DNA from: an uncultured Anaerolineales bacterium
Lineage (GTDB): Bacteria; Chloroflexota; Anaerolineae; B4-G1
Reading direction: 5' to 3'
Assembly: GCA_964474655.1 (NCBI GenBank)
Contig: CAYYTU010000001.1
Location: 97,009 to 161,008, forward strand
Length of the DNA: 64,000 bases
How positions within the stretch are numbered: position 1 is the first letter of the stretch; every line of letters begins with the position of its first letter. The notes beneath the pieces are model-generated. The model ran no database searches and was not told the origin of the DNA. It saw only the letters and a program-made list of their open reading frames with translations. Made by a program: the position numbers and the translations under genes. This document shows positions 3,889 to 28,423 of this stretch, in pieces.

Positions 3889-3891
3889 CGT

Positions 3892-6854: not shown

Positions 6855-6882
6855 AAGTGTTTCTCCCATTGTCAGCCGGCGG

Positions 6883-8694
6883 CTACCAGCAGGTCAGGGT
6901 TACCACCAGCGCCAGCATCAGGCTCAAGGGTATCCACATCAAGTTGTGGCGCAGCAGGCCGGTGTGGTAGCGCCTTGTCTCCCGGCTGAGCGCCAATACT
7001 CCTTGCGTTGTGCGCTTGATAATGCCTTCCAGCCCCTCTTGCTCCACGAAGCGGTAGATGATGCGAGATCCATCCACGACGGCCTGCACGCTCAGTACGA
7101 TGAGTTGCTCCAGGAAGCCCACCTCGACGATGGCGCGTAAGGCTTGGGCGGCATGCGCCAGTCCTTCTTGTAGATCGTACGTGGTCTCGATCTGTTCTCC
7201 AGCCGCAGGGCCTGGCATTTGTAGCTTGATGCGAGATCGTTTTTGCATACGCCACAGGAAGAGAACCAGCGTCATAATCAGCAGCAGAGCCGGGGTAAAG
7301 ACGAGATAACGCAAGAGGGTGCTCAGCGTGGGGACCGGAGGGGGAGCATAGCCGGCTATATCGACTAGCCGACGGGACAGCGGGCCGGCGGTCGAGGTGC
7401 CGATCAGCACTACCAGGCCTAATGTCCCTACTGCTGCCCATCGACCGATGGAGCTGGAAGCACCTTCGGTCGTTTCGGGTGAGCGTGACGCTTCGCGCAC
7501 GGCCCAGACCGTCAACAAGGCGACGGCGGCCTCAGCGACGAAGAGGGCATCCAGAGGTGCCCCTCTCTGCCGCGCCCACCAGGTGATCAGCAATCCGGAG
7601 GCGGCCAGGGCCAGACCGGCCAGGGCAAATAGCCCCTGCATCGCTCGCCCCGGGAGAGAAGTTTCTCCTCTCTCTGGTGCTTCCCCGGTCAGGAAAAGTA
7701 GAATCTGGAGCGGCGTCGTCGCCAGCAACCCCAGCCACACGACCACTTTCATACCGGAGGCTGCGGCGAAGACCAGCAGCCCACCCCGGGCCGCGGCGAT
7801 GTAGATCAGGGCGCTGCGCAGATCGCGGCGAGTCAGGGCCGTGAGCACAGCCAACATTGCAGCGCCGGCTCCCAGCCACAGGATGAGTGTCTCTACTGCC
7901 GCGTTGGGTGTCAGGAGGGATGTGACGCGGTAGAGCAGGTATACGCCCAGATTGGGCATAACGGTGGTGAAGAGCCATGCCTGAGTGTTCGCCGCGAGGG
8001 AGCGCCCCCAGCCGATCCACAGGTGGAGCGGCCAGTTGCCGAGTTTGACCCAGACAGCCAGCAGCAAGCCGAAGACGACCCATCCTATGCCCGGTGCAGC
8101 CAGTGCGTCGGCTGCCTGGAGCGCCGGGGTGATCTCAAGGGTCCCGCTGGCGTCGAACAGGATCAGAATGGCGCTGAGCAATCCTACGTCGCCCAGACGC
8201 AGCACCACGTAAATGAGCCAGAACCCTCGCCCTCCTCGGTCGCTGCGCAGCTCGACCAGCGGCGCCAGGGCGATGGAGAGCGCCACAATCTCCAGGGCCA
8301 CGTAGCGGGCCAGGAAGTGCTCGGTGAGGAAGGCTACGCTGGACGCCGCCAACGCCGATAACATCAGGGCCAGCGAAAGTGGAGGCACTTCCGTGTCAGT
8401 CGAAGTAGTCCCCAGCAGGGCCAGAAACGCGGCCCAGGTGGTAACCAGCGCGGCGTACAAACCGGTGGGGCCCAGGCCAAAGGCCATCGGGCCGGTTCCG
8501 GGCAGCCATTCCAGGGTTAGATTGGGATCTTCTCCAGCCAGAGGTAGCAGCGCTGTGGCGCACAAAGCCGTCGCGGCGCTCGCGAAGAGGGCCACTCCTC
8601 TTGCTGAGCGTGGGGAGCGGCGCAGGAAGAGCACGATCACCAGGCTGGTCAAGAACGGTAATCCGAAGAGGGCCACGAGTAACTCGTTGCTCAT
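6883..8694 (-). CDS. nuoL: NADH-quinone oxidoreductase subunit L-like (divergent antiporter-like subunit with C-terminal lateral helix)
   Basis: 603 aa in the position of nuoL. RLGDVGLL motif. The C-terminal amphipathic stretch plus final TM resembles the NuoL HL helix. Otherwise divergent; the GWEGVGL-type motif is absent. Confidence 0.7.
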   Translation of the reverse strand: MSNELLVALFGLPFLTSLVIVLFLRRSPRSARGVALFASAATALCATALLPLAGEDPNLTLEWLPGTGPMAFGLGPTGLYAALVTTWAAFLALLGTTSTDTEVPPLSLALMLSALAASSVAFLTEHFLARYVALEIVALSIALAPLVELRSDRGGRGFWLIYVVLRLGDVGLLSAILILFDASGTLEITPALQAADALAAPGIGWVVFGLLLAVWVKLGNWPLHLWIGWGRSLAANTQAWLFTTVMPNLGVYLLYRVTSLLTPNAAVETLILWLGAGAAMLAVLTALTRRDLRSALIYIAAARGGLLVFAAASGMKVVVWLGLLATTPLQILLFLTGEAPERGETSLPGRAMQGLFALAGLALAASGLLITWWARQRGAPLDALFVAEAAVALLTVWAVREASRSPETTEGASSSIGRWAAVGTLGLVVLIGTSTAGPLSRRLVDIAGYAPPPVPTLSTLLRYLVFTPALLLIMTLVLFLWRMQKRSRIKLQMPGPAAGEQIETTYDLQEGLAHAAQALRAIVEVGFLEQLIVLSVQAVVDGSRIIYRFVEQEGLEGIIKRTTQGVLALSRETRRYHTGLLRHNLMWIPLSLMLALVVTLTCW

Positions 8695-8695
8695 A

Positions 8696-8998
8696 TCAGC
8701 CTCGCAGCCTGTCCAGCTCGTCTATGTCCCCGGAGGGATAGTACTCGTAGATGTTGATGAGCAAGGCCAGCGCGACGGCGATCAGGATAGTCTCGACCAC
8801 TAAGGCGGAGATGGCGATGCTTTGTACGGTGTAGAGATCTCCTTTGACGTGGCCCTGGTAGATCAGGATTAGCGTCACGCCTTGTAACATAATTTTGAGC
8901 CCGATCACCTGTTTAATGGCTTCGCGCTGAGTGAGCAGGCAGCCCAGTCCCAGCAAGAATATCAGCCCGCTCCCGGAGAAGAAGATTATTTCTTCCAT
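8696..8998 (-). CDS. nuoK: NADH-quinone oxidoreductase subunit K (4L)
   Basis: 100 aa, 3-TM. Real start MEEIIFF lies inside the longer ORF 8696..9160. Confidence 0.85.
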   Translation of the reverse strand: MEEIIFFSGSGLIFLLGLGCLLTQREAIKQVIGLKIMLQGVTLILIYQGHVKGDLYTVQSIAISALVVETILIAVALALLINIYEYYPSGDIDELDRLRG

Positions 8999-11456: not shown

Positions 11457-11930
11457 GCAAGTTGAGATGGCACTGGATAGCCTGTCACGATCTGGCAGCA
11501 TGTGGTGTACGGCTAATCCCTCCTTATGCTTATCTGTCCGTATCAGATTGTTTTAATTGGCATCGCAATCGATCGAGCGGACATCAACCAATCAATCTAC
11601 TCACAGCTCCGCATCTTCCTTATACTTCCGGTAACTTCCAGCCTCCCCGGCCTGGGGGGTCAAGATGACCTATATTCTTAATCTTTCCCAATTGACATTG
11701 GGTCTGTTGTTGATCCAGACAACCCGTGGCGTTTCCGGCTGCCTCGCTGGTAGTGGGGGCTTCCGGCGCTTGCTTCTGAGCGTGTGTGGTGAAAAGCGCC
11801 CCCACGCGGTAGCAGGGCAAAAAGGGCCTGGCCAAGAGCCACTGACTGCTGGAAGGGAGGTGAGCTATCGAACGAACCGTTGGAAAGCGTATTTGCACAT
11901 CGTTCAACATCTCACAAAATAAGGAGGATT

Positions 11931-12905
11931 ATGATGGCTGAGTATAGCAAAGAACAACTTCTCTGGATGTACGAGCGGATGCGCACCATCCGCTCGTTCG
12001 AGGATCAAGTGAGCGAATTGTTCGCCGAGGGCAAGATACCGGGCTTTGTGCACCTGTACGCCGGTGAGGAGGCCATCGCCGTCGGCGTCTGCTCGCAGCT
12101 GACCGACGACGATTACATCACCTCCACCCACCGCGGACACGGCCACTGCATCGCCAAGGGCGTCGACGTCAAGGAGATGATGGCCGAGCTCTACGGCAAG
12201 GCCACCGGCTCCTGCAAGGGCAAGGGCGGTTCCATGCACATCGCCGACGTGGACAAAGGGATGATGGGCGCCAACGGCATCGTCGGCGGTGGCGGGCCTC
12301 TGTCCTGCGGCCCGGGCCTCACGGCCAAGGTGCTGGGCAAGGATCACGTCGCGGTCTGCTTCTTCGGCGACGGCGCCTCGGAGCAGGGCACCATGCACGA
12401 ATCGATGAACCTGGCTTCCATCTGGAACCTGCCGGTGGTCTTCGTCTGCGAGAACAACGGCTTCGCCGAGTCGACCCCGGTCGAGTACCACGCCTCGGTC
12501 AAGGACATCGCCGACCGCGCCACTGCCTACGGCATGCCCGGCCTCTCCGTCGACGGCACCGACATCTTCGCCGTCACCGAGGCGGTCAGTGAGGCCATCG
12601 AACGTGCCCGCCAGGGAGAGGGACCAACGCTGATCGAGTGCAAGGCCTTCCGCTACTACGGCCACTTCGAGGGCGACGCCGTGACCTACTACACCGACGA
12701 GATGCGCGAGGATTTCCGCCAGCGCGATCCGATCAATAAATTCCACGAGAACGTCCTGGAACGCGGGCTGGTCTCTGAGGAGGAGCTAGACGCCATCGAC
12801 GAAAAGGTCGAGAGCCTGATCGACGAGGCCGTCATCTTCGCCGAGGAAAGCCCGATGCCGACGCCCGATGAACTGACCACCGACGTCTACGTCAGTTACG
12901 CCTAA
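11931..12905 (+). CDS. TPP-dependent 2-oxoacid (pyruvate/acetoin) dehydrogenase E1 component alpha subunit
   Basis: E1 alpha signatures (YRGHGH-type HRGHGHC, GDGASEQG, ENNGFAE). AAGGAGG SD at 11921-11927. Confidence 0.9.
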   Translation: MMAEYSKEQLLWMYERMRTIRSFEDQVSELFAEGKIPGFVHLYAGEEAIAVGVCSQLTDDDYITSTHRGHGHCIAKGVDVKEMMAELYGKATGSCKGKGGSMHIADVDKGMMGANGIVGGGGPLSCGPGLTAKVLGKDHVAVCFFGDGASEQGTMHESMNLASIWNLPVVFVCENNGFAESTPVEYHASVKDIADRATAYGMPGLSVDGTDIFAVTEAVSEAIERARQGEGPTLIECKAFRYYGHFEGDAVTYYTDEMREDFRQRDPINKFHENVLERGLVSEEELDAIDEKVESLIDEAVIFAEESPMPTPDELTTDVYVSYA

Positions 12906-12921
12906 AAGGAGGGAGACGACC

Positions 12922-13941
12922 ATGACGAACCGGACTTTGACGTTTCGAGAAGCGCTAAACGAAGCCATGCGGCTGGAGATGCGCCGCGACCCCACTGTGA
13001 TCCTGATGGGTGAAGACGTGGCCGGCGGCGCCGAGCTCGAGCATGTGGAAGGTGAGGGCGAGGAGGCCTGGGGCGGCGTCCTGGGCGTCACGGCCGGGCT
13101 GGCCAAGGAGTTCGGCCGCGACCGCGTGCTCGACACGCCCATCAGCGAGTCGGCCTTCATCGGCGCCTCGGTCGGCGCCGCGGCCAGCGGGCTGCGGCCC
13201 ATCGCCGAGATGATGTTCGTCGACTTCTTCGGCGTCTGCATGGACCAGATCTTCAACCAGGGCGCCAAGCTGCGCTACATGTTCGGCGGCAAGGCCGAGG
13301 TGCCCATCGTGATCCGCACCATGATCGGGGCTGGCTTCCGCGCCGCTGCTCAGCACTCGAGCTCCCATTACTCGGTCTTCACCCACATGCCGGGGCTGAA
13401 GGCCGTCGTGCCCGCCACGCCGGCCGACGCCAAGGGCTTGCTGGCGGCCGCCATCCGCGACGACGACCCGGTGCTCTTCTTCGAGCACAAGCTGCTCTAC
13501 GACACCGAGGGCGAGGTGCCGGAGGGCGAGTACGTCATCCCGCTGGGTCAGGCCGATGTCAAGCGCGAGGGCAGCGACGCCACCATCGTCGCCATCGGGC
13601 GTATGGTCTTGCTGGCGCTACAGGCCGCCGAGCAGCTGGCCGACGAGGGCATCGCGGTCGAGGTGATCGACCCGCGTACCCTCTCCCCGCTGGACGAGGA
13701 AACGATCGTCGATTCGGTCAAGAAGACCCATCGCTTCATCGTGGTGGACGAGGATAACCCGCGCTGCAGTATGGCGACCGATCTGGCCGCGCTGATCGCC
13801 ACCGCGGCCTTCGACTATATGGACGCGCCGCCACAGATGGTGACGGCGCCCCACGCGCCGGTGCCCTTCAGTCCGGCCCTGGAGGATGAATATGTCCCCG
13901 GCGTGGCCGACATCGTGGAGGCCGTCAAGTCGGTGGTCTAG
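12922..13941 (+). CDS. 2-oxoacid (pyruvate/acetoin) dehydrogenase E1 component beta subunit
   Basis: Transketolase-like E1 beta (MGEDV...DTPISE, C-terminal domain). About 15-aa acidic insertion near the N-terminus. Confidence 0.9.
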   Translation: MTNRTLTFREALNEAMRLEMRRDPTVILMGEDVAGGAELEHVEGEGEEAWGGVLGVTAGLAKEFGRDRVLDTPISESAFIGASVGAAASGLRPIAEMMFVDFFGVCMDQIFNQGAKLRYMFGGKAEVPIVIRTMIGAGFRAAAQHSSSHYSVFTHMPGLKAVVPATPADAKGLLAAAIRDDDPVLFFEHKLLYDTEGEVPEGEYVIPLGQADVKREGSDATIVAIGRMVLLALQAAEQLADEGIAVEVIDPRTLSPLDEETIVDSVKKTHRFIVVDEDNPRCSMATDLAALIATAAFDYMDAPPQMVTAPHAPVPFSPALEDEYVPGVADIVEAVKSVV

Positions 13942-14028
13942 GATATCGCACACAAACGGACAGAGGGAGCCGCTTCCCGGGTGGGAAGGCTCCCTCTGTC
14001 GATAGGTAGCTACGATAGGACAGGTATT

Positions 14029-15027
14029 ATGTCAACAGTGGGAATCGTCGCCAATCCGGCCTCCGGCAAGGATATCCGCCGCCTGGTGGCCCGCAGCTCG
14101 GTCTTCGATAACAACGAAAAGGTCAACATCCTGCGCCGCCTCCTGCTGGCGCTGGACGCGCTGGGAGTGGAGCACGTGATCTTTATGCCCGATTACTACG
14201 GGCTGGGCGAGCACGCCCTGAAGCACGTTGAGCTCGCGCTGGCGGTCTCGTTCCTCGATATGGAGGTGCGCGCCGATGAGCGCGATTCGGCCGAGGCCGG
14301 ACGCCGCTTCCGCGAGATGGGAACCGAATGCATCATCACGCTGGGCGGCGACGGCACCAACCGGGCCGTGGCCAAGGGCTGCGGGCAGGTGCCGCTGGTG
14401 CCCATCTCTACCGGCACCAACAACGTGGTGCCCTGTATGGTGGAGGGGACCATCGCTGGCTTGGCGGCCGGCCTGGTTGCCAGCGGTGACGTCGATCTCG
14501 ACCGCGTCAGCCATCGCTCCAAGCGGCTGGAGGTCTATCAGGAGGGCGAGCTGATCGACATCGCGCTGGTCGACGTGGTGGTGACCAGCGAGCTCTTCAT
14601 CGGCAGCCGCGCGCTGTGGGACCCGGACACGATCCGAGAGATCGTCCTGGCCCGGGCCGAGCCGGGCAGCATCGGCATGTCGGCCATCGGCAGCCAGATT
14701 CGGCCCATCGGCCTGGAGGATGAGATGGGCATGCATCTGCTGATCGGCCCTGAGGGCACGAACGTCCTGGCGCCGGTCGCGCCGGGCCTGGTGACCCAGG
14801 TCTGCATCCGCGAGCATCAGATGCTGACGCTGGGCGACGAGGTCGCGCTGGAGGCGATGCCTTCGACGGTGGCCCTCGACGGCGAGCGGACGCTGAAGGG
14901 CTTCCCGGAGCACCCGATGACGGTGCGCCTGACGAATAATGGTCCGCGGGTGGTGGACATCGACGCCTGTATGGAGGAGGGTATCCAGACCGGCGCCTTC
15001 CGACGCCGCTGCGCGGTCGATTTCTAG
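14029..15027 (+). CDS. ATP-NAD kinase-fold protein (AcoX-like, acetoin-operon associated)
   Basis: ITLGGDGT motif of the NAD kinase/DAG kinase fold. Position between E1 and E2 matches acoX of acetoin catabolic operons. Confidence 0.6.
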   Translation: MSTVGIVANPASGKDIRRLVARSSVFDNNEKVNILRRLLLALDALGVEHVIFMPDYYGLGEHALKHVELALAVSFLDMEVRADERDSAEAGRRFREMGTECIITLGGDGTNRAVAKGCGQVPLVPISTGTNNVVPCMVEGTIAGLAAGLVASGDVDLDRVSHRSKRLEVYQEGELIDIALVDVVVTSELFIGSRALWDPDTIREIVLARAEPGSIGMSAIGSQIRPIGLEDEMGMHLLIGPEGTNVLAPVAPGLVTQVCIREHQMLTLGDEVALEAMPSTVALDGERTLKGFPEHPMTVRLTNNGPRVVDIDACMEEGIQTGAFRRRCAVDF

Positions 15028-15092
15028 ACGCAGCGCGAAATCCCAGAGAACCGTACAAGCATACGAGAAGTAGCAGACAAGGAGTGTGCAGA

Positions 15093-15398
15093 ATGGCATT
15101 GAAAGCAGCCTTCATCTTCCTGGCCCCCGAGGTCGATCCCGAGCAGCATCGTAAGACCGTGGTCACGCCCGAGGTCGAGCTGACCGCCGTGGCCGTCAAC
15201 AATTACGACGAAGCCGCAGCCGTCTGCCAGCAGCTGGTCGAAGAGGGCATCGGCGCCTTCGAGCTGTGCGGCGGCTTCGGGCACGCTGGCACCGCCCAGG
15301 TCGCCGAGGCCGTCGGCGACAAGGCCGCCGTCGGCGTCGTCCGCTTTGATCATCACCCCGGGCTCGACTTCAAGAGCGGCGACGAGCTGTTCCGATAG
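15093..15398 (+). CDS. conserved hypothetical protein (~100 aa)
   Basis: ATG at 15093 preceded by AAGGAG. No recognisable catalytic motif. Embedded in the dehydrogenase operon. Confidence 0.5.
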   Translation: MALKAAFIFLAPEVDPEQHRKTVVTPEVELTAVAVNNYDEAAAVCQQLVEEGIGAFELCGGFGHAGTAQVAEAVGDKAAVGVVRFDHHPGLDFKSGDELFR

Positions 15399-15401
15399 TC
15401 T

Positions 15402-15833
15402 ATGAACCAGCGGAAATTCATCGTCGAGCTGGGGATGGGCGTCGACCAGCACGGTCAGGACCCCACCAACGCGGCGCGAAAAGCGGTCAAGGACGCCATC
15501 TCGCGCAGCTGCCTCACCGGCCTGATCGAGATCGCGCGGCTCAATGATATAGAACAACTCAATCAGCTGACCGTGGCGGTGCGCGTGGCCTGTCCGCAGC
15601 CGGAGCGAGTGGACGAGGCCCGCGTGCTCCAGGTCCTTCCCTTCGGACAGAAACAGATTGAGGTCGTGGAGGGCGGGATGATCGCCTCCACCGTCTACCA
15701 GCCGGAGCTGGGCGACACGACCGACGAGGCGTTCGTCGCCAACGCCACGGTGACTGTCTTCGTCGATATGGATCGCGTGCTGATGGCCTGGCGCGAGGAG
15801 CAGCCCGGGGACCAATCATCAGCTCTTGGATGA
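15402..15833 (+). CDS. Lin0512-family conserved hypothetical protein
   Basis: FIVELGMGVDQHGQDPTNAARKAVKDAI and LPFGQKQIEVVEGGM resemble the Lin0512/TIGR02058 family. Confidence 0.55.
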   Translation: MNQRKFIVELGMGVDQHGQDPTNAARKAVKDAISRSCLTGLIEIARLNDIEQLNQLTVAVRVACPQPERVDEARVLQVLPFGQKQIEVVEGGMIASTVYQPELGDTTDEAFVANATVTVFVDMDRVLMAWREEQPGDQSSALG

Positions 15834-16056
15834 CCGTTTCTCAAGCGCCGATGATGCATTCGACAGGCCCTGCGCACGGAGCTCGCAGGCGCTGAGAAGC
15901 GCCTTCTCAGGTGCTGAAAAACGCTTTCGCAGGCGTTATTTTGTTCCGGCAGGGTTTGCGACCCCGCCGCTATGGAGCGCTAGATTGATGCGTATGGATA
16001 TGGTTCCATAGCCGGCAACTTCTTGACGAACCCCCAATTTTTAAGGAGAGAGACCG

Positions 16057-17391
16057 ATGGCAAAGAAAGTGATCATGCCCAAGCTGGGTATGGCGATGAG
16101 CGAAGGCAAAGTGGTCAAGTGGCTCAAGGACGACGGCGCGGAGGTCCAGAAGGGCCAGCCGGTCGTGGCGGTGATGAGCAAGAAGATCACCTACGAGGTC
16201 GAGGCCCCGGCCGACGGTATCCTGCGCCACGTGGCCCAGCCTAAGGACGAGCTGCCCGTCGGCGGTCTGGTCGGCTTCATCCTCGCCCCAGGAGAGGAGA
16301 TGCCCGCGGTCGAGGAGGTCGCGCCGGTAGCCCCGGCAGAAGCGCCCGCCGTCGAGAAACAGAAGGAAAAGGCCAAGGAAGCGACGCCGGAAGAAGAAGT
16401 CGAGGAGGAGCCCGAGTTCGTGCGGGCCTCCCCGGCGGCCCGACGCTTGGCCGAGGAGCTGGGCGTCTCGCTGGCGCAGGTGGAGCCCACCGGCCCGCGC
16501 GGCCGCGTGGTCGAGGATGACGTCCGCCGCCACCACGAGGCGCAGGAGCGCATCCTGGCCTCGCCGCTGGCCCGTCGCATCGCGGAGGAAGAGGGGCTGG
16601 ATCTGGCCCAGGTCGAGGGCAGTGGGCCCGGCGACCGGATCGTCGAGGAGGACGTGCTGGGCGCCCTGGAGAGGCGCGAACCGTCCGCGCCGCCCCAGGC
16701 GATCCCCTTCACCGGCATGCGTGAATCGATCGCCGAGCAGATGGTCCACAGTCTGCGCACGATGGCCCAGCTGACCATCACCACCAAGGTCGACGTGACC
16801 GAGCTGCGTGAGACCCGCGCCGCGCTGCGCGAGCGTTGGGAGAAGAAGATCTCCTACACGGACCTGCTGGTCAAGGCCGTGACGGTGGCCCTGGCCGACC
16901 ATCCGCTGCTGGGCGCCCGCCTGGAGAGCGACGAGATCCTGCTGCCGACGGCGCTCAACATCGGCGTGGCGGTGGCGCTGGAGGAGGGACTGATGGTGCC
17001 CGTGATCCGGGACGCCGACCAGCTCACGGTGCCTGAGATCAGCGACGCGATCAAGGACCTGGCCCAGCGGGCTCGCTCCAACGAGCTGAGCGTGGACGAG
17101 GTGACCGAGGCGGTCTTCACCGTCACCAATATGGGGATGTTCGGTGTGGACGCCTTCACACCCATCATCAACCCGCCGGAGGTGGCCATCCTGGGCGTGG
17201 GGCGCATCGTCGAAGAGGTGGCCTGGGTCAACGGGCAGGCCCAGCCGCGGGCGATGATGACGCTCAGCCTGACCATCGATCATCGCGTGGTCGACGGCGC
17301 GCCCGGGGGCGCCTTCTTGCAGACGCTGACGCAACTGCTGGAGCACCCGGCCCTGATCTTCGCAGGCGACCAATCGCAGGAAAAGGAGTAG
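16057..17391 (+). CDS. dihydrolipoamide acyltransferase E2 component (lipoyl domain, two tandem E3-binding domains, catalytic domain)
   Basis: Lipoyl-lysine domain (MPKLGMAMSEGKVVKW). Two PSBD repeats (ASPAARRLAEELGVSLAQVEPTGPRGRVVEDDV and ASPLARRIAEEEGLDLAQVEGSGPGDRIVEEDV). Catalytic DHRVVDGA motif. Confidence 0.9.
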   Translation: MAKKVIMPKLGMAMSEGKVVKWLKDDGAEVQKGQPVVAVMSKKITYEVEAPADGILRHVAQPKDELPVGGLVGFILAPGEEMPAVEEVAPVAPAEAPAVEKQKEKAKEATPEEEVEEEPEFVRASPAARRLAEELGVSLAQVEPTGPRGRVVEDDVRRHHEAQERILASPLARRIAEEEGLDLAQVEGSGPGDRIVEEDVLGALERREPSAPPQAIPFTGMRESIAEQMVHSLRTMAQLTITTKVDVTELRETRAALRERWEKKISYTDLLVKAVTVALADHPLLGARLESDEILLPTALNIGVAVALEEGLMVPVIRDADQLTVPEISDAIKDLAQRARSNELSVDEVTEAVFTVTNMGMFGVDAFTPIINPPEVAILGVGRIVEEVAWVNGQAQPRAMMTLSLTIDHRVVDGAPGGAFLQTLTQLLEHPALIFAGDQSQEKE

Positions 17392-17394
17392 ACG

Positions 17395-18780
17395 ATGAGC
17401 GAGAGACAAGACCTGGTGGTCATCGGCGGCGGTTCCGGCGGGTTTGCCGCGGCGATACGCGCCGCGCAGCTGGGCGGCAAGGTGACCGTGGTCGAGGAGC
17501 GATACGTGGGCGGCAATTGTATGAACAAGGCCTGCATCCCCCTCACGTTCCTGACCACGGTCGGGCACGTGGCGGAGACGATTGAAGGCGCCGGTTTCTT
17601 CGGCATCGAGGTCGACGAGCCGACCTTCGATATGGCCGCGCTCCACGACCGGCGAGAGTTGCTTATCGAAGGGCTACGGATGGGCACGGAGGAGCAGCTG
17701 AGCGATTACGGCGTCCGGCTGGTCGAAGGGCGCGGGCGCCTGATCGACCGCGGGACGGTCGAGGCGGCCAGCGAGCGGATTGAGACGCGCAACGTGGTGA
17801 TCGCCACCGGTTCCGTCTCGGCCCCGCTGCCCCTAGAGACGGGGGGCGCCGAGCTGCCCGGCGTGCTCGATACCGACGCCGCCATCGAGCTGCGCCAGAT
17901 CCCGCTGCGCATCGCCGTCATCGGCAGCTACCCCTGGGACCTGGAGCTGGCTCAGTACTTCAACTGGCTGGGCAGCGCGGTCACGCTGATCACCGCGTCC
18001 CGGCAGATGTTGGCCTGGGATGAGGTCGTGGCCGACCGCGAGGTCTCCCAGCGGCTGGCCAAGCGGCTCCACGATAGCGGCGTGGTGGTCAAGCGCGGCG
18101 TCGATGTGGAGGCGATCCGTCAGGATGACGAGGCGCTGACCGTCGTTCTGGACGGGGGCGACGAGATCCCGGTCGACAAAGTGCTGGCGGCGCGGCGCTT
18201 CCCCAACTCCAGCGGGCTGGGCCTGCGCGAGGCCGGCGTAGCGATGGAGGAGGGCGCGGTACTGGTGGACGAGCGGATGGCGACCAACGTGCCGGGCATC
18301 TACGCCATCGGCGACGTCACCGCCGGGCCGATGTGGTCCCACAAGGCGAACGCCGAGGGCCTCGTGGCCGGGGCGAACGCGATGGGTGCCGACGAGCAAA
18401 TGGACTACGAGACCATGCCCCATTGCCTCCACACCTGGCCGCCGGTGGCCTGGGTGGGCCTGACGCAGGACCAGGCCGAGGATCGCGGGCTGGATTTCGA
18501 GGTCGGCAAGGTGCCGGTGGCCATCAACCCCTACGCTATGCTCCTCAACCAAACCGAGGGCGCGATCAAGGTGATTGCCGAGCGGGCCTATGGGCGCATC
18601 CTGGGCGTCCATCTGATCGGCCCCGGCGCACTGGACCTGATCAACGTGGCCACCGTGGCGATGCTTTCCGAGGCGACGGTCCACGAGCTGATGCGGTTCA
18701 TCCCCGCGCATCCCTCCATCGGCGAGGCGCTGGTCGACGCCGCGATGGACGTGGAGAAGCGCTCGCTCCATCTGCCGTAG
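17395..18780 (+). CDS. lpd: dihydrolipoyl dehydrogenase E3 component
   Basis: FAD GxGxxG N-terminus, redox disulfide CMNKAC, C-terminal dimerisation domain with HAHPS-like motif (PAHPSIGEA). Confidence 0.9.
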   Translation: MSERQDLVVIGGGSGGFAAAIRAAQLGGKVTVVEERYVGGNCMNKACIPLTFLTTVGHVAETIEGAGFFGIEVDEPTFDMAALHDRRELLIEGLRMGTEEQLSDYGVRLVEGRGRLIDRGTVEAASERIETRNVVIATGSVSAPLPLETGGAELPGVLDTDAAIELRQIPLRIAVIGSYPWDLELAQYFNWLGSAVTLITASRQMLAWDEVVADREVSQRLAKRLHDSGVVVKRGVDVEAIRQDDEALTVVLDGGDEIPVDKVLAARRFPNSSGLGLREAGVAMEEGAVLVDERMATNVPGIYAIGDVTAGPMWSHKANAEGLVAGANAMGADEQMDYETMPHCLHTWPPVAWVGLTQDQAEDRGLDFEVGKVPVAINPYAMLLNQTEGAIKVIAERAYGRILGVHLIGPGALDLINVATVAMLSEATVHELMRFIPAHPSIGEALVDAAMDVEKRSLHLP

Positions 18781-18782
18781 TG

Positions 18783-18838
18783 GTGAATGGCGAATAGCGA
18801 ATGGTGAATGGTGAATAGCGAATGGCGAATGGCGATTG
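18783..18838. repeat. heptanucleotide tandem repeat (GYGAATR)x~8 between lpd and lipB
   Basis: tggtgaatggcgaatagcgaatggtgaatggtgaatagcgaatggcgaatggcgattg starts directly after the lpd stop. Confidence 0.8.
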
Positions 18839-18891
18839 TGGGAGGTGTCTCTGACGGCGATTCCGCTACCGAGTATGGAGATTGAGAATCG

Positions 18892-19551
18892 GTGCTTTTC
18901 TTTCGTCTGGGAACGGTAGGCTACGAGGAGGCCCATCGGCTTCAGAAACGGCTGGCCGAGGCGCGGGCGCAGGACGCTATCGGCGATGTGGTATTGTTGC
19001 TCCAGCACAGGCCGGTGATCACCATCGGGCGCGGCGGGGGCGCGGAGGACGTGTTGGCCTCCGCCTCACTGCTGCGCCGGGAGGGCGTGCGCCTGGTGGA
19101 GACCGACCGCGGCGGCAAGGCGACCTACCACGGCCCCGGGCAACTGATCGCCTATCCGATTATGCGGGTCGAAAAGAGCGCCCTTTACGACTTCGTATGG
19201 CGTCTGGAGGAGACGGTCATCCGGGCGCTGGCGACGTACGGCCTCACGGCCGGCCGCATGGAGCAGCATCCCGGCGTCTGGGTCGACGGCGACAAAATCG
19301 CTGCCATCGGGTTGGCGGTGCGCGAGGGGGTCACCCGCCACGGCCTGGCGCTGAACGTGGCGCCCCGGATGGCCCACTTCGAGTTGCTGATTCCCTGCGG
19401 CATCACGGATCACGGCGTGACGTCGATGGCGCAGGTGCTGGGGCAGGCGCCGCCGCTGGGAGAGGTGAGCGGGCGCTTGGTGGGCACCTTCGCTCAGGTA
19501 TTCGAGTGTGACGTCGAGGCGCGGGACGGCCTTGATGGCTTTATCCGTTGA
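18892..19551 (+). CDS. lipB: lipoyl(octanoyl) transferase
   Basis: RGGKATYHGPGQ, KIAAIG and PCGI motifs of LipB. GTG start. Confidence 0.85.
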   Translation: MLFFRLGTVGYEEAHRLQKRLAEARAQDAIGDVVLLLQHRPVITIGRGGGAEDVLASASLLRREGVRLVETDRGGKATYHGPGQLIAYPIMRVEKSALYDFVWRLEETVIRALATYGLTAGRMEQHPGVWVDGDKIAAIGLAVREGVTRHGLALNVAPRMAHFELLIPCGITDHGVTSMAQVLGQAPPLGEVSGRLVGTFAQVFECDVEARDGLDGFIR

Positions 19552-19578: not shown

Positions 19579-20778
19579 TTGGCACGTGACAAAGAGATCA
19601 TACTGGACTTGGCGCGGCGCGACTCCACCTTCGTGGATCGTTTGGGCGCAACTAGCCGGTTGATCAGACAATGCATTCAATGTGGCACCTGTTCTTCTTC
19701 CTGTCCCACCGCCTACGCTATGGATTATACGCCGCGCCAGGTATGGCGTCTGGTGCAATGGGGCTTCGTGGAGGAGATATTGAACAGTCGCACCTTTTGG
19801 CTCTGCACGGTCTGCAACTCCTGCCAGGTGCGCTGTCGCCGGGGCATCGACATCAAGGACGCCATGGTCGCTCTCAAGGAGTGGGCCGTGCGGGAAGACG
19901 TCCGCGTCCCCGATCGCATGGGGCTGCTGGAAGAGACAGTCACCGCCTGCTACAACATCTCCGGCGACGATAACGCCAGCCGGCTCGTCTGGAGCGAGAA
20001 CCTGCTTGATCCCCCGCCAGGGGTGAAGCCCCGTCGCCAGACGGCCGAGACGGTCTACTTCGTCGGCTGCGTCAGTTCGTTCTATCCGCGGGCCTATTCC
20101 ATCCCCCGCGCCCTGGTGCAGATACTAGATCGGGCTGGGGAGGAGTTCACCACCCTGGGGGGCGAGGAGTGGTGCTGCGGCTACCCGCTTTATGTGGCGG
20201 GGATGCGCTCTCGTATGGCCGATCTGGCGCGGCATAACCTGGAGCAGGTGCGGGCAGTAGGGGCGAGGCGAGTGGTCTTCACGTGTCCCTCTTGCCTTTA
20301 CGCCTGGTCGCATCTCCACCCGGAGATGGTGGATACGTCGGGGTTGGAATTGCTCCACGCCACGGAGATGCTGGTCGATTTGTTGGATGCGGATCGCCTG
20401 GCCCTGGGGCCGGTGGAGGAGGTCGTGACTTACCACGATCCCTGCGATTTGGGGCGCAAGAACGGCATCTACGAGGCGCCGCGAGCGGTGATGGGCGCCA
20501 TCCCGGGGCTGGAGCTGCGCGAGATGTCGATGAACCGTCGGGACGCATTGTGCTGCGGGGGTGGCGGCGACGTGGAGACGGTGGACCCGGATATTCCCGT
20601 CCAGGTGGCGGAGAGACGTCTGGCCCAGGTGGAAGCGACCGGTGCCAAGTATGTCGCCTCCGCCTGTCAGCAGTGCCAACGCACGCTCCAGGAGGGAGCG
20701 CGCAGAAATCGCATCCGCATCCGCGCGATCGACGTGGTGGAACTGCTCTGGCGTTCGGTCCAGGCAGCCGATGAGTGA
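19579..20778 (+). CDS. HdrD-like Fe-S protein (fused HdrC-type 2x[4Fe-4S] + HdrB-type tandem CCG domains)
   Basis: CIQCGTCSSSCP and CTVCNSCQVRC ferredoxin motifs, followed by two Cx(n)CCG(x)n C domains (FVGCVSS...CCGYP; YHDPCDLGR...CCGGGGD). Confidence 0.8.
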   Translation: MARDKEIILDLARRDSTFVDRLGATSRLIRQCIQCGTCSSSCPTAYAMDYTPRQVWRLVQWGFVEEILNSRTFWLCTVCNSCQVRCRRGIDIKDAMVALKEWAVREDVRVPDRMGLLEETVTACYNISGDDNASRLVWSENLLDPPPGVKPRRQTAETVYFVGCVSSFYPRAYSIPRALVQILDRAGEEFTTLGGEEWCCGYPLYVAGMRSRMADLARHNLEQVRAVGARRVVFTCPSCLYAWSHLHPEMVDTSGLELLHATEMLVDLLDADRLALGPVEEVVTYHDPCDLGRKNGIYEAPRAVMGAIPGLELREMSMNRRDALCCGGGGDVETVDPDIPVQVAERRLAQVEATGAKYVASACQQCQRTLQEGARRNRIRIRAIDVVELLWRSVQAADE

Positions 20779-22759
20779 GAAGGAGTGCGCAGTGGAAAAC
20801 GTTCGGATTGGCGTCTACGTCTGTGAGTGCGGGGGGAATATCTCATCTACGGTGGACGTCGATGAGGTGGTGGCATCTATCGCCGATATGCCGGGAGTGG
20901 TGGTGGCCCGCAAGCACCGCTATATGTGCTCTGGGCCTGGTCAAAACGTGATTCAGCAGGACATCCGCGAGCATAACCTGGAGCGGGTGGTGGTGGCTTC
21001 GTGTACTCCACGGATGCACGAGCCCACTTTCCAGCGCACGTTGGAGGAGGCGGGGCTCAATCCCTTCCTGCTGGAGATGGCGAACATCCGCGAGCACGTC
21101 TCCTGGGTAGTCGAGGACCCCGATAAGGCGACGGAAAAGGCCAAGCGCCTGACGCGCGCGGCGGTGGCCCGCGTGGGACTCCATTCCGCCCTGGAACCGC
21201 GCCAGGAGCCGTTCAGCGAGGCTTCCCTGGTGGTCGGCGGGGGCATCGCCGGTATTCAGGCCGCGCTCTCCATCGCCGATATGGGCTATCAGGTCTATCT
21301 GGTGGAGCGGGAGCCCTCCATCGGCGGGCGGATGGCCCAGCTCAACAAGACGTTCCCCACCCTGGACTGTAGCACCTGAATATTGGGACCGAAGATGATG
21401 GATGTCGGTCGGCATCCCAACATCACATTGCTCAGTTGCAGCGAGGTCGAGGAGGTCTCCGGATACGTGGGCAACTTCGACGTCCGCATCCGCAAGCGGG
21501 CTCGCTTCGTGGACGAGGACCTGTGCACCGGCTGCGGCTTGTGCCAGGAGAAGTGCCCCGCGCAGGTGACGGACGAGAGCTTCGAGGCGGGGCTGGGGGA
21601 GCGGAAGGCCATCTATCGGCCCTTCGATCAGGCCATCCCCAACGTGCCCGTGCTGGACGCAGACCATTGCATCTACTTCCAGCGTGATGGGCGCTGTGGG
21701 GCCTGCGCGAAGCTCTGCCCCACCGGCGCGGTGGACTACGAGCAGGAGGATCAGCTGCTGGATGTGGAGGTGGGGACCATCATCGTGGCGACGGGCTTTG
21801 GGATGTGGGACCCGGCGCAGCTGTCGCAGTATTCCTACGGCCAATCTCCGGACGTGCTCACCGGGCTTCAGTTCGAGCGCCTGAGCAGCGCCAGCGGCCC
21901 CACCGAGGGTCGGATCGTGACCAGCGCCGGGGAGCCTCCGGAGAGCGTGGCCATCATTCACTGCGTCGGCAGTCGCGACGAGAATGCGCACGCCTATTGT
22001 TCGCGCGTCTGTTGCATGTATGCCCTGAAGCAGGCCCATCTGGTCCGCGAGAAGACCGAGGCGGAGGTATACGAGTTCTACATCGATATGCGCACCTCCA
22101 GCAAGACGTACGAGGAGTTCTACGAGCGGCTGCAAGGGGAGGAGGTGACGTTCGTGCGCGGTCACGTCGCCGAGGTGGAAGTATTGCCGGATGATCGGCT
22201 GCGCGTGCGGGGGGAGGACGCCGACCTGGGCTGGGTCTTCGCGCTAGATGTCGATATGGTCGTCTTGGCCTCGGCCATTGAGCCGCAGCCAGATGCCGGG
22301 CACGTGGCGGCGCTGTTCGGTCTCGGACGCGCTGCCGACGGTTGGTTCTCCGAGGCTCATCCAAAGTTGCGCCCGGTGGAGACCAACGTCGGGGGCGTCT
22401 TTCTGGCCGGTTGCTGCCAGGGGCCGCGGGACATACCGGACACGGTGGCCCACGCCGAGGCCGCGGCTCACGAGGCGGTCAAGCTCCACAATCGCGGCCA
22501 AGTCACCATCTCGCCCCTGGTGGCCGTGGTGGACGAGGATCTCTGCTCCGCCTGCAAGACCTGCCTGACGCTCTGTCCCTACGAGGCCATCAGCTTCGTC
22601 CCAGAGGAGGGCGTGGCGCGTGTGAACGAGGCGCTGTGTAAGGGCTGCGGCACCTGCGTGGCGGCTTGCCCGGCCGGAGCGATCACTGCCCGGCATTTCA
22701 CGAGCGAGCAGATCCTGGCGCAGATCGAGAGCCTCTTCCGAGCGCCTGTGGAGCGGTAG
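20771..22759 (+). CDS. hdrA: heterodisulfide reductase subunit A-like flavoprotein, predicted selenoprotein (in-frame TGA at 21377-21379 = residue 203)
   Basis: ORFs 20561..21379 and 21383..22759 share one frame and are separated only by a TGA. HdrA N-terminal Cys domain (VYVCECGGNIS...CSGPG...ASCTPRMHEPTF). FAD site (VVGGGIAGIQAA...[28 protein letters not shown]). Inserted and C-terminal ferredoxin domains. ATG overlaps the hdrD-like stop (ATGAGTGA). Confidence 0.75.
21383..21420 (+). other. candidate bacterial SECIS hairpin immediately 3' of the hdrA UGA
   Basis: TTGGGA(21383-88) pairs with TCCCAA(21415-20). Inner CCGA/TCGG plus further G-U/G-C pairs. Starts 4 nt after the TGA. Confidence 0.4.
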
Positions 22760-23263: not shown

Positions 23264-23746
23264 ATGCCAGGTAGACTGAAGTTCATCATCGCAGGGCTGC
23301 TGATCGTAGCTGCTGTGGTTTATTTGATCGTCACCAGCACGGGCAGCACGGCGCGCTACTTTATGACCGTGCAAGAGTTGCAGGCGATGAGCGATGCTGG
23401 CGAGCGTAACGTCACAATCTCTGGCGCGGTGCTGGGAGATACTATCGCTTATGATTCCTCCAGGCCTCGCGTGACTTTTACCATTGTGCAGGTGCCCGGC
23501 GATCCCAAGGAGGTGGAGCGGGCCGGCGGGCTGTCCAAGGTGCTCCACGATGCTGTCAACGACCCCGATGCCCCGCGCCTGGAAATCGTCTACGACGACG
23601 TGAAGCCCGATCTCTTGCAGCACGAGAGCCAGGCCATCATACGCGGTCGATTGCAGGAAGACGGCCGCTTCCACGCCGATGAGGTGCTCCTCAAGTGCCC
23701 CACGCGTTACGAGGAGGGCGTGCCGGACCAGGGTGAGGAGGGATGA
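23264..23746 (+). CDS. ccmE: cytochrome c-type biogenesis heme chaperone CcmE (CxxxY variant)
   Basis: N-terminal TM anchor and OB-fold. C-terminal LLKCPTRYEEGVP sits where the canonical LAKHDEKY heme-binding motif is, with Cys instead of His. Confidence 0.75.
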   Translation: MPGRLKFIIAGLLIVAAVVYLIVTSTGSTARYFMTVQELQAMSDAGERNVTISGAVLGDTIAYDSSRPRVTFTIVQVPGDPKEVERAGGLSKVLHDAVNDPDAPRLEIVYDDVKPDLLQHESQAIIRGRLQEDGRFHADEVLLKCPTRYEEGVPDQGEEG

Positions 23747-26262
23747 TGCTAGCGCAGATTGGCTCCGTTCTCACGGCTTTGGCGTTGACCGCGGCTCTGT
23801 ACGCGGCCTTCGCCATATATTGGTCCATTCGGCGAGATGATTTACGCTGGGCTGCCAGTGGTCGTAACGCCGTCTATGCCGCTGCCGGGCTGCTGGGGCT
23901 GGCCGTGCTGGTCCTGTTGGCGGCTTTCCTCGACGACCAATTTTACATCCGGTACGTGGCTCAGCACTCCAGCCGCGCCCTACCGTTTTACCTGAAGGCG
24001 TCGGCGGTTTGGGGCGGGCAAGCGGGGTCGCTGTTGCTCTGGTCGTTCTTACAGGCGCTCTTCGCCGCGCTGTTGGTGTGGCATCCGCCAAGGCAGGGGC
24101 GTGTGTTGATTCCCTGGGCGACGGTCTTCCTCAGCTTGATCACGGTCTTTTTCACCGCTGTGACGCTCTTCCTCTCCAATCCGTTTGCGATGGCGACGAC
24201 GGTGCCGGCCGATGGGCAAGGGCTCAATCCGCTGCTTCGTCATCCCGGGATGATCTTCCATCCCCCGGCGATGTATCTGGGCTACGTCGGGCTGGCGGTG
24301 CCCTTCGCCCTGGCCCTGGCGGCGGTGGTCGTCCGGCGCGTCGACGATTGGCCCGCGGCCGCTCGCCGCTGGACCCTGGCGGCCTGGCTCTTTCTGGGGC
24401 TGGGGTTGTTGCTGGGAATGCGTTGGGCCTACGATGTGTTGGGCTGGGGCGGGTATTGGGGCTGGGACCCGGTGGAGAACGCCGGATTGATGCCCTGGCT
24501 CACCGCGACGGCCTTGCTTCATGGTTTGGTGATGCAGGACCAACGACGTGGATTTCGCTGGTGGAACCTGTTGCTGGTCCTTCTTTCATTTGTGTTGGTG
24601 CTCTTCGGTACCTTCACCACGCGCAGCGGCCTGATTCAGTCCGTACACGCTTTTGCTCGTTCCAATCTGGGCCTCTACTTCTTGGGCGCGATTGCCCTGA
24701 CGCTATTGGGCTCGCTGGCTCTGTTCTTCACTCGTCGGTCGCTGCTGACCGATGATGAGGCCACGGATGACCTCTTCTCACGCGAAGGAATGTTCATCCT
24801 GACGTTGATTCTATTTTTGACCATTACAGTCTCCGTGTTCGTTGGTAGTACCTTGCCCACGCTCACCGGGGGGACGTTCGAGGCGCCTCCGGCCTGGTTC
24901 GATCGGGTCACTGGCCCGCAGTTCGCCGCGCTGGTGCTGGTGATGGGCCTCTGTCCGCTGCTGGGCCGGGCCGTCAACGCGCTGCGCCAGCTGGAGCGAC
25001 GTGGGTTCAGCGCGTTGTTGGGAAGCGTGTTGGTGACGGGGATTGCCGTGCTGGTCGGCTTCACGCGCCCAGCTTCGCTTATTGGCTTCGCCATTGTTGG
25101 TCTGGCCGGTGGGACGGCCCTGGGTGAGATAAGTCGTGCTCTCGCTGCCCGCGTCCGCAAGGGCGAGGGGCCGGCTCAGGCATTGTGGCGTCTCTTCGGG
25201 CGGAACCATCGCCGTTACGGCGGCTACCTGGTCCATTTGGGCGTGATCTTGATGGCCGTGGGCGTCATCGGCACGCGCTTCTATCCCTTCGAGACCGAGA
25301 TAGTGATAGCGCCTGGCGAATCCATCACGGTGGGCGACTATGCTCTGGTCTTCGAGGACTTGAAGCAAGAGTCCGCCAGCGATCACGTTTCCACTCGCGC
25401 CTCGCTCGCGGTCTATCGCGGCGATAAGCATTTGCGCACGCTCTATCCTCAGCTGGACAATTACCAGGATTTCCATCAAACAATCGCGATTCCCGCGGTG
25501 CGGGCCGGCGTGCGGGAGGACCTCTATTTGATTCTGGCGGGTTGGTCCGATGGTGGTACCAGCGCGACGTTCAAGGTCTTCATCAACCCGCTGGCTATGT
25601 TCCTCTGGCTGGGCGGGCTGGTCTTTATGGCCGGCGGCGCGGTGGCATTGTGGCCGTCGCTGGACGAGGCGCGACTCTCCGCGCCCCAGATGCGTCGTCG
25701 TCGCGTATGGAGCGTCCTTGGCCTGGGTGTGGGTGTGGTTCTGTTGGCGTTAGCCGTGTGGGCGATGTGGGGCACTGGGCAGGGCACGGCTGCTCCAGCG
25801 CCAGATTCTGGCGCCCAACTGGCTCAATCGCAGTCGTCGCGCGTCCGCGAGGGTGAGCCAGCGCCTGGCTTTGCGCTTGATCTCTTGGACGAATCCACGC
25901 TCGACCTCGCCGACCTGCGGGGGGAAGTGGTGGTGCTCAACTTCTGGGCCACCTGGTGTCCGCCTTGCGAGGACGAGCTGCCCGACTTCCAGTCCGTGTG
26001 GGAGGATTATCGTCAGCGCAATGTCGTCTTCGTGGGCCTGACCATCCAGGAGGATATGGCCGAGGTGGAGGAGATGCTTGCTCGGTTGGGCGTCACATAC
26101 CCGGTCGGGCTCGACGCTCAACAGCAAATCGCCCTTGAGTACGGCATCACCGGCGTGCCGGAGACCTTCGTGATCGATCCCCAGGGTGACGTGGCTTCCG
26201 TCCACATCGGGCCGGTGAGCGCCGGGCAGCTCCGTCAGGACCTGGACAACTTGCTGGAGTGA
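23743..26262 (+). CDS. ccmF: cytochrome c-type biogenesis protein CcmF fused to a C-terminal thioredoxin-like (CcmG/TlpA/ResA-type) domain
   Basis: WWD motif WGGYWGWDPVENA and polytopic CcmF body (~650 aa). Residues ~690-839 form a TlpA-like domain (VLNFWATWCPPCEDELP). ATGA overlap with ccmE. Confidence 0.85.
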   Translation: MMLAQIGSVLTALALTAALYAAFAIYWSIRRDDLRWAASGRNAVYAAAGLLGLAVLVLLAAFLDDQFYIRYVAQHSSRALPFYLKASAVWGGQAGSLLLWSFLQALFAALLVWHPPRQGRVLIPWATVFLSLITVFFTAVTLFLSNPFAMATTVPADGQGLNPLLRHPGMIFHPPAMYLGYVGLAVPFALALAAVVVRRVDDWPAAARRWTLAAWLFLGLGLLLGMRWAYDVLGWGGYWGWDPVENAGLMPWLTATALLHGLVMQDQRRGFRWWNLLLVLLSFVLVLFGTFTTRSGLIQSVHAFARSNLGLYFLGAIALTLLGSLALFFTRRSLLTDDEATDDLFSREGMFILTLILFLTITVSVFVGSTLPTLTGGTFEAPPAWFDRVTGPQFAALVLVMGLCPLLGRAVNALRQLERRGFSALLGSVLVTGIAVLVGFTRPASLIGFAIVGLAGGTALGEISRALAARVRKGEGPAQALWRLFGRNHRRYGGYLVHLGVILMAVGVIGTRFYPFETEIVIAPGESITVGDYALVFEDLKQESASDHVSTRASLAVYRGDKHLRTLYPQLDNYQDFHQTIAIPAVRAGVREDLYLILAGWSDGGTSATFKVFINPLAMFLWLGGLVFMAGGAVALWPSLDEARLSAPQMRRRRVWSVLGLGVGVVLLALAVWAMWGTGQGTAAPAPDSGAQLAQSQSSRVREGEPAPGFALDLLDESTLDLADLRGEVVVLNFWATWCPPCEDELPDFQSVWEDYRQRNVVFVGLTIQEDMAEVEEMLARLGVTYPVGLDAQQQIALEYGITGVPETFVIDPQGDVASVHIGPVSAGQLRQDLDNLLE

Positions 26263-27840: not shown

Positions 27841-28197
27841 TTACAGATCGAACAGGTAGCGCAATCTCTCGGTCACTTTTGCTCTCAGCGGTGGCGATAG
27901 ATCCCCGATCTCACGCCGGATGATGGACGTGCTGACCGTCATCAGGCGATGTAGCCGAAGCACTGATGAGACCCGCAGGCCCGTCCTGGCGAAATCGGGA
28001 TGGTTGGTATCTATCACAATGTCCGTTTCCAACAAATTGTTGGGGGCTTGACTGGTGATAAACGCCAAGATGACGTGGTTGTAGGGGCCAAGAGGCTCAG
28101 TCATGCAGACAGCTGGTCGCACCTTCGTCGTTGTGAGGTCGTCGAAGGGGAAGGGAACCAGGACAACTTTACCCTGCGTCGTGGAATGGCTTCCCAT
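27841..28197 (-). CDS. type II toxin, PemK/MazF-family mRNA interferase
   Basis: GKVVLVPFPFDDLTTTKVRPAVCM N-terminus is typical of MazF/PemK. 118 aa. Confidence 0.75.
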   Translation of the reverse strand: MGSHSTTQGKVVLVPFPFDDLTTTKVRPAVCMTEPLGPYNHVILAFITSQAPNNLLETDIVIDTNHPDFARTGLRVSSVLRLHRLMTVSTSIIRREIGDLSPPLRAKVTERLRYLFDL

Positions 28198-28423
28198 CGT
28201 CCAGCGAGTAGATGTCCTCTTCGGGCTCTTTTAGGAAGTCGAAGGCCGGGTTGGAAGCAGCCGCTTGCAGCCACTCGGCTTCGTCTATATCGGATGCTTC
28301 TTCGACCAGGATGATGACCCGCACGCGGCTTGGGCCAGCGAAGGGGAGTGGCTCGTCTAGGAGCAGACGTTGCTGCTCGTCGACAGTTCCTGTCGTTTCT
28401 ATCGCTTTCTTCAAGGATGTCAT
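28169..28423 (-). CDS. putative cognate antitoxin (DUF2281-like acidic C-terminus)
   Basis: 84 aa, overlaps the toxin start by 29 nt. C-terminal EAEWLQAAASNPAFDFLKEPEEDIYSLDD pattern. Confidence 0.55.
   Translation of the reverse strand: MTSLKKAIETTGTVDEQQRLLLDEPLPFAGPSRVRVIILVEEASDIDEAEWLQAAASNPAFDFLKEPEEDIYSLDDGKPFHDAG

Follow-up and report, generated by a model that had tools for sequence, protein, structure and literature searches.

An hdrA gene with a predicted in-frame UGA selenocysteine codon in an uncultured Anaerolineales bacterium

A 64,000-nucleotide stretch of the genome of an uncultured Anaerolineales bacterium (assembly GCA_964474655.1, contig CAYYTU010000001.1, positions 97,009 to 161,008), referred to here as the window, includes an hdrA gene whose reading frame is interrupted by a TGA codon. 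Comparison with related sequences indicates that this is very probably one gene in which codon 196, UGA, is translated as selenocysteine (Sec). The gene is located at positions 20792..22759 of the forward strand and comprises 655 codons when read through the UGA, from a GTG start to a TAG stop (22757-22759), and its product shows full-length homology to HdrA. A Sec codon in this gene had been proposed in an initial annotation of the window, and the proposal is now backed by the conservation of the TGA, by selection on both halves of the gene, by a downstream hairpin specific to TGA-type genes, and by the match to Sec197 of an archaeal HdrA. The call, in all likelihood correct, is nonetheless ordinary because at least 120 further species of bacteria and archaea have the same position recoded. 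The window hdrA adds a member to a known selenoprotein family.

Results

Two open reading frames (ORFs), 20561..21379 and 21383..22759, lie in one frame, and the only stop between them is the TGA at 21377-21379; there are no further stops or frameshifts in hdrA. The frame and the sole stop bear out the initial reading that this TGA alone splits a single hdrA. The NCBI, JGI, and Logan gene calls all cut the gene into fragments of ~200 and ~454 amino acids. A Shine-Dalgarno sequence, AAGGAG (20780-20785), precedes the GTG at 20792, the likely start of hdrA. An alternative start, the ATG at 20771, overlaps the stop codon of the upstream hdrD-like gene and would produce a protein of 662 amino acids with Sec as U203. 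These were the values first reported; the single full-length HdrA stands, but the likelier GTG start gives 655 amino acids and Sec196. The UGA (21377..21379, forward strand) is then residue 196 and the second position of the Cys-x-x-Sec motif DCSTU, a site that in HdrA belongs to the thioredoxin-reductase-like FAD domain and is occupied by the second Cys of a Cys-x-x-Cys. The only other pair of ORFs in the window joined in the same frame by a TGA (47331-47333) was rejected as a recoding candidate, as this codon separates unrelated ThiF and LigT genes.

Residues 2-653 of the protein match the HdrA chains of the PDB entries 8RVU (E=5e-226), 5ODC (4e-216), and 9SFI (9sfi_A, 4.8e-192). Hundreds of bacterial matches were found, and identity to homologues of ~650 amino acids is 58-67%. 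The N-terminal Fe-S, thioredoxin-reductase-like FAD, and inserted and C-terminal ferredoxin domains are all present, so that joining the halves does yield an HdrA with the expected domains, as had been anticipated. In an alignment with 12 homologues, the stop coincides with the Cys of TLDCSxCIL, which is invariant in all full-length sequences. At the residue level, the UGA aligns with position 197 of 5ODC_A (Cys197) and with the non-standard residue X197 of 9sfi_A. This residue is Sec197 (U197) in the Methanococcus maripaludis Hdr-Vhu-Fwd structure 9SFI, where it forms a selenosulfur bond to a cysteine and lies between the FAD and the A3 [4Fe-4S] cluster (PMC13518236). According to earlier structures (PMC9012536), Cys197 ligates in trans the N-terminal cluster of the partner protomer. 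The alignments confirm both that the stop falls on the conserved second Cys, as initially stated, and that its counterpart in M. maripaludis HdrA is Sec (PMC13518236). The protein scored 841.9 bits with the NCBIfam exception model NF040770 (cut-off 1100), and the two methanogen HdrA equivalogs, NF041778 and NF041891, gave scores of 604.7 (cut-off 1400) and 578.2 (cut-off 1300). Because these scores are under the curated methanogen cut-offs, it was not called a CoB-CoM heterodisulfide reductase; it is filed as an HdrA-family bifurcating flavoprotein and not as an equivalog of the methanogen enzyme.

The fragmented gene calls could also reflect a genuinely split gene, in which the UGA ends the translation of a first polypeptide and another of ~454 amino acids, initiated at ATG 21395 or TTG 21383, assembles with it non-covalently. 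In-frame start codons do exist 2-6 codons past the TGA, and they are used by gene callers (P0001, P0127). However, the break would hit the FAD-binding domain exactly at a functional Cys, the same codon corresponds to the non-standard residue modelled as Sec in the solved structure, and no Shine-Dalgarno sequence precedes 21395. Furthermore, the conserved element that follows the TGA is a hairpin with a GGUC loop, described below, rather than an initiation region. We regard a split gene as very unlikely.

An identical TGA was found in independently assembled contigs of the same species, one each from SRR7048219 and SRR7048228 (L121, 100% identity; L250, 98.9%). The 90% identity cluster of the downstream-fragment protein includes members from four JGI metagenomes and from further SRA runs. 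These contigs (L251-L256) represent a sister species, present in several JGI and Logan data sets, with an hdrA that is 85.7% identical in nucleotide sequence to that of the window and has TGA at the same codon. Between the two species, the ratio of nonsynonymous to synonymous substitution rates (dN/dS) is 0.094 before the TGA (dS 0.49, 190 codons) and 0.072 after it (dS 0.69, 455 codons). The low ratio past the TGA indicates that the downstream part is translated and that both halves encode protein under strong selection. In spite of a dS of 0.5-0.7, the 34 nucleotides that follow the TGA are unchanged in the sister species and the hairpin is identical.

These results bear on the possibility that the TGA arose through an error of sequencing or assembly or marks a pseudogene, that is, that a nonsense change from TGY (TGC or TGT) to TGA inactivated hdrA. 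A single-base change would be enough, the public annotation has two ORFs, and the window hdrA lacks the neighboring flpD and fdh partners that accompany it in relatives. Against this explanation, separate assemblies, made from different runs and in different studies, have the TGA, it was kept over a dS of ~0.5-0.7 with a dN/dS of 0.07 downstream, other stops or frameshifts are lacking, and a TGA-specific hairpin follows it. An error or pseudogene is therefore already largely refuted, and we assign it a negligible probability.

A putative bacterial-type selenocysteine insertion sequence (SECIS) was identified within the coding sequence downstream of the UGA. The minimum free energy (MFE) fold includes an apical hairpin at 21400..21417 of the forward strand, with the 7-bp stem GGAUGUC/GGCAUCC (21400-21406 paired with 21411-21417) and the loop GGUC (21407-21410); in the fold of 21377-21436, this stem begins 20 nucleotides past the UGA. 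The extended element (21394..21424, same strand) has, in addition, a lower stem formed by GAUG (21394-21397) and CAUC (21421-21424) in both the MFE and the centroid folds. When the window structure was placed on 121 TGA-type sequences, 76% of the cells were paired, compared with 25-53% in slid controls, and the covariation score was 0.206, compared with 0.148 for shuffled alignments, a value reached in 0 of 500 shuffles. The apical stem was paired in 79% of the cells and the lower stem in 70%, the support for the latter being weaker. There were 64 cells in which both sides of a pair had changed. Compensatory changes were located at pairs 25:40, 27:38, 29:36, and 30:35, including U-A to G-C at 27:38 in 16 sequences and C-G to U-A at 29:36 in 17. 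RNAalifold recovered just the three innermost pairs from the mixed 121-sequence alignment because some clades use shifted registers. Among the 13 closest TGA-type sequences, a stretch of 29 nucleotides, AUGAUGGAUGCCGGUCGGCAUCCCAACAU, is nearly invariant even at third codon positions. The one departure of the window from it is a C to U change (Ala to Val) that turns a C-G pair into U-G.

A set of 124 TGY sequences with the same flanking motif, drawn from metagenomes, served as a Cys-type control. At least six of the seven stem pairs can form in 60% of the TGA-type sequences but in only 4% of the Cys-type sequences. GGTC serves as the loop in 68 of the 120 TGA-type sequences, whereas the eight loops seen most often in the Cys-type set do not include it. 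The mean MFE of positions +13 to +52 was -11.2 kcal/mol for the TGA-type and -6.4 kcal/mol for the Cys-type sequences (Mann-Whitney p about 1e-22). Support for the predicted SECIS thus rests on the comparison across TGA-type and Cys-type genes and not on a single fold.

A different hairpin, TTGGGA...TCCCAA, had been suggested as the SECIS at first. The segments it requires are present (TTGGGACCGA at 21383-21392, TCGG at 21405-21408, and TCCCAA at 21415-21420), but in the 121 sequences only 56% of its cells were paired and its covariation score, 0.061, equaled the shuffled mean of 0.061. In the window, it is less stable than the conserved fold, with which it competes (-8.9 versus -13.3 kcal/mol). 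That suggestion was abandoned in favor of the element at 21400-21417.

Archaeal SECIS elements have been described in the 3′ untranslated region (UTR). Consistent with this location, three Asgard archaeal metagenome-assembled genomes (MAGs; L027, L082, L089) have an hdrA TGA without the hairpin (MFE -1.2 to -5.3 kcal/mol, compared with -13.3 kcal/mol in the window). The hairpin of L006, a locus labelled Bathyarchaeota, is of the bacterial type, which may be explained by mis-binning of the locus or by its horizontal acquisition.

Several observations weigh against the assignment of UGA as a Sec codon or of the hairpin as its SECIS. No selA, selB, selD, or tRNA-Sec gene was found within the 64-kb window: a tRNA scan of the window returned zero tRNA genes, Pfam searches of ~58 window ORFs detected no SelA, SelB, or SelD domains, and tblastn with E. 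coli SelA and SelB gave no match in the window or in 248 fetched loci. The hairpin taken from the window sequence alone is not significant when compared with shuffled sequences (z = -1.1), and an Rfam search of the window at gathering thresholds found nothing. Unlike the SECIS of E. coli fdhF, the hairpin has no bulged U, and 20 nucleotides instead of 11 separate the UGA from its stem. The TGA-type and Cys-type sets were drawn from different collections, have ancestry in common, and are phylogenetically non-independent. Finally, a weakened hairpin is found in three close Cys-type relatives (L124, L126, L128; 65-67% amino acid identity), so part of the pairing may stem from the peptide D-A-G-R-H. 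The weakened hairpin of these relatives may be a SECIS remnant left after a switch from Sec to Cys or a by-product of the D-A-G-R-H codons. In L126, it reads GAUGCC-GGCC-GGCAUC.

The lack of Sec machinery within the window would also fit a readthrough of UGA that does not involve selenium, with Cys or Trp inserted by a near-cognate or suppressor tRNA, or with UGA reassigned genome-wide, as is the case in some lineages. However, TGA ends 21 of 48 window genes, including the hdrD-like gene directly upstream of hdrA, which is more than any other stop codon does, so UGA is not reassigned. In addition, the hairpin has features of a SECIS that binds SelB and occurs together with TGA but not with TGY, and a related lineage has a Sec-type fdhA. 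Selenium-free readthrough is, in our estimation, extremely improbable. The related lineage is Anaerolineae SKYB88 (L106), in which an fdhA-like gene two genes past the Sec-type hdrA and flpD has a TGA in the active-site motif CARL-TGA-HAPT. Together with this gene, the SelB and Sec-type formate dehydrogenases reported from Anaerolineae single-cell genomes (PMC4959059) lend indirect support to the presence of Sec machinery. The TGA of the fdhA-like gene (L106, 7360-7860, in VDHCARL-TGA-HAPTVAGL) is probably a second Sec codon of one operon. A NifS-like desulfurase encoded at 40709-41965 of the window was considered and discarded as a Sec gene; it is of the NifS/IscS type, which is not Sec-specific.

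The distribution of Sec-type hdrA was determined by scanning one genome per GTDB species with the back-translated motif T-F-P-T-x-D-C-x-x-TGA-I-L-x-P-K. TGA was found at this hdrA codon in at least 120 species. In 120 of 120 loci, in-frame ORFs that are long or reach the end of the locus flank the TGA on both sides. As judged by record titles, about 27 of the at least 120 loci belong to Chloroflexota (Anaerolineae, Anaerolineales, Thermoflexia, Dehalococcoidia, Chloroflexia), and the remaining ones are mostly from Desulfobacterota but also from Bacillota, Planctomycetota, Gemmatimonadota, and Asgard archaea. Among prokaryotic selenoproteins, HdrA is an established family, characterized by the motif CxxU (PMC13188914, PMC1794560). 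Sec-containing HdrA proteins from Deltaproteobacteria and Clostridia (Moorella, Carboxydothermus, Syntrophomonas, Desulfotomaculum) were reported in 2006 (PMC1794560), and by 2016 they were known from 42 organisms (PMC5029168). The initial opinion that a bacterial Sec-HdrA outside methanogens and deltaproteobacteria would be notable is consequently not upheld, given the Clostridia reported in 2006 (PMC1794560) and the many Chloroflexota, Bacillota, and Planctomycetota recovered by the scan.

Discussion

Decoding of the window hdrA would follow the mechanism established in bacteria. When the ribosome reaches the UGA, SelB-GTP carrying Sec-tRNA(Sec) would bind the apical loop, and Sec would be inserted without termination. 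By analogy with the M. maripaludis and Methanothermobacter wolfeii structures, the Sec residue could be a cluster ligand or could, on the low-potential branch, serve as a relay that forms a reversible selenylsulfide. HdrA and the adjacent HdrD-like CCG protein would form a flavin-based electron-bifurcating disulfide reductase, which is the most likely function of the pair. Three proteins of ~1,090 amino acids (P0006, P0008, P0010) score like full-length HdrA, and their size fits an HdrD-HdrA fusion (399 + 655 amino acids). If they are such fusions, as judged by size, they would support a functional pairing of HdrD and HdrA.

Sec at HdrA residue 197 is widespread, with at least 120 species in Chloroflexota, Desulfobacterota, Bacillota, Planctomycetota, and Asgard archaea, among others. 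This wide distribution is relevant to the proposal that the Cys-Sec197 pair relays redox equivalents within the bifurcating core (PMC13518236). The practical value of the finding lies in annotation. Because gene callers split hdrA, both the enzyme and the dependence of the organism on selenium are left unrecorded. What is known about Sec decoding and about HdrA is unchanged; only the gene neighborhood is unusual, and it is a possible lead.

The Sec-HdrA proteins of Methanococcales (M. maripaludis 9SFI/9T1S and Methanocaldococcus jannaschii) have the same domain order, align with the window protein over the full length, and have Sec at the identical residue 197 of C-x-x-U (PMC13518236). The window hdrA differs in that it has no adjacent VhuD/MvhD, hydrogenase, or HdrB/HdrC genes, its neighbor being instead a fused HdrD-like protein. 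The window comes from a bacterium, with genes for complex I-type (NADH dehydrogenase/Mrp-like) subunits and for cytochrome c maturation. The location of the SECIS also differs, in the 3′ UTR in archaea and, as a bacterial-type hairpin, inside the coding sequence in the window. The deltaproteobacterial and clostridial Sec-HdrA genes (Zhang et al. 2006, PMC1794560; Peng et al. 2016, PMC5029168) share the UGA site and a downstream SECIS in the coding region, and the scan recovered the same TGA motif in Desulfobacterota and Bacillota. These genes are usually part of glpC-hdrA-frhD-frhG-frhA or hdrABC-mvhD operons with further selenoproteins, whereas the window hdrD-like gene has no UGA and neither frhD nor mvhD is present.

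The closest among the TGA-type matches are Thermoflexia or Anaerolineae MAGs, namely Thermoflexus sp. RSWP15 (L099, 73.8% nucleotide identity), Thermoflexia G79 (L076), and Anaerolineae SKYB88 (L106). They share 72-74% of the nucleotides with the window gene and 68-71% of the amino acids past the UGA, and this closeness points to a Thermoflexia/Anaerolineae-like bacterium as the probable source of the window. Their local motif, which ends in (A/V)GRHP, is near-identical and their SECIS is equal except for the C to U change that gives a G-U pair. In L076 and L106, hdrA is followed by flpD and an Fe-S protein gene, and in L106 also by the Sec-type fdhA, while the window hdrA comes after acetoin/2-oxoacid dehydrogenase genes and lipB.

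The E. coli fdhF SECIS, like the hairpin in the window, has an apical stem-loop shortly past the UGA and a G-U dinucleotide in the loop, which is also GGUC. They differ in the distance from the UGA to the stem (11 nucleotides in fdhF, 20 in the window), in the bulged U of the 5′ arm, which the window hairpin lacks, and in the sequence of the stem, which is unrelated. Of the two conserved residues in the fdhF loop, G23 and U24, the former contacts SelB (PMC8659212).

The hdrD-like gene (19579..20778, forward strand) encodes a protein of 399 amino acids with two [4Fe-4S] motifs and two CCG domains (Pfam CCG, Fer4), and its stop overlaps or abuts the start of hdrA. Its product is a probable disulfide-reductase partner of HdrA. 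Its best NCBIfam matches, TfrB, GlpC, and HdrC, are all under the cut-off. An hdrD-like gene is also found upstream of hdrA in the relatives L016, L029, L097, and L107, and in the Cys-type L124. A co-oriented cluster, 11793..19551, closely spaced upstream, has the genes of an acetoin/2-oxoacid dehydrogenase. It comprises E1 alpha, E1 beta, an NAD-kinase-like (AcoX-like) protein, DUF6506, Lin0512, E2, E3, and lipB, as identified by Pfam and, for LipB, by NCBIfam. Only 27 nucleotides separate the end of lipB from hdrD. The sister species (L251-L254) has the same E2-E3-LipB-HdrD-HdrA order. In close Cys-type relatives and in Sec relatives of the Thermoflexia type, the arrangement is instead hdr(D or CB)-hdrA-flpD-x-fdhA; FlpD adjoins hdrA in relatives, but neither an MvhD/FlpD adaptor nor HdrB/HdrC is adjacent to the window hdrA. 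The conserved aco-lipB-hdrD-hdrA arrangement is the sole unusual feature of the locus. It is not general, as no E1, E2, E3, or LipB homologue was found in the loci (up to 8 kb) of 120 other TGA-type genes.

This arrangement could mean that HdrD and Sec-HdrA were recruited to a lipoyl-dependent acetoin/2-oxoacid dehydrogenase operon. They would use lipoyl/dihydrolipoyl or another pathway thiol disulfide, protein-bound lipoyl taking the place of the "heterodisulfide", and would couple the oxidation of 2-oxoacids or acetoin to ferredoxin through flavin-based bifurcation or confurcation. We consider this recruitment unlikely, but if true, it would mean that a full-length, selenium-containing HdrA has taken on a new physiological role in a Chloroflexota-like bacterium that makes cytochromes c. 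The sulfur-oxidizing system of sHdr and lipoate-binding proteins was dismissed as a model since its sHdrA is short (~350 amino acids) and has no ferredoxin domains, while the window HdrA, with 655 amino acids, has both. The match of the sHdrA-like chain 6TJR to the window HdrA is confined to residues 325-565 (E=3e-36).

Cytochrome c maturation genes, ccmE first, start ~500 nucleotides downstream of hdrA. At 23743-26262, CcmF domains (Cytochrom_C_asm and CcmF_C) are followed by a C-terminal thioredoxin-like AhpC/TSA/Redoxin domain (residues ~705-840), and the product looks like a fusion of CcmF with a CcmG/ResA-type protein within a ccmE-ccmF...ccmA-ccmB-ccmC cluster. A PemK/MazF-like toxin gene (27841-28230, reverse strand) is located between two groups of cytochrome c maturation genes. 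At the other side of hdrA, the reverse strand of 454-8721 encodes NADH dehydrogenase/Mrp-antiporter-like subunits, including NuoH-like, 49-kDa, and 20-kDa subunits and three Proton_antipo_M proteins. Together, the complex I-like and Ccm genes suggest a respiratory lifestyle, unusual company for an HdrA selenoprotein.

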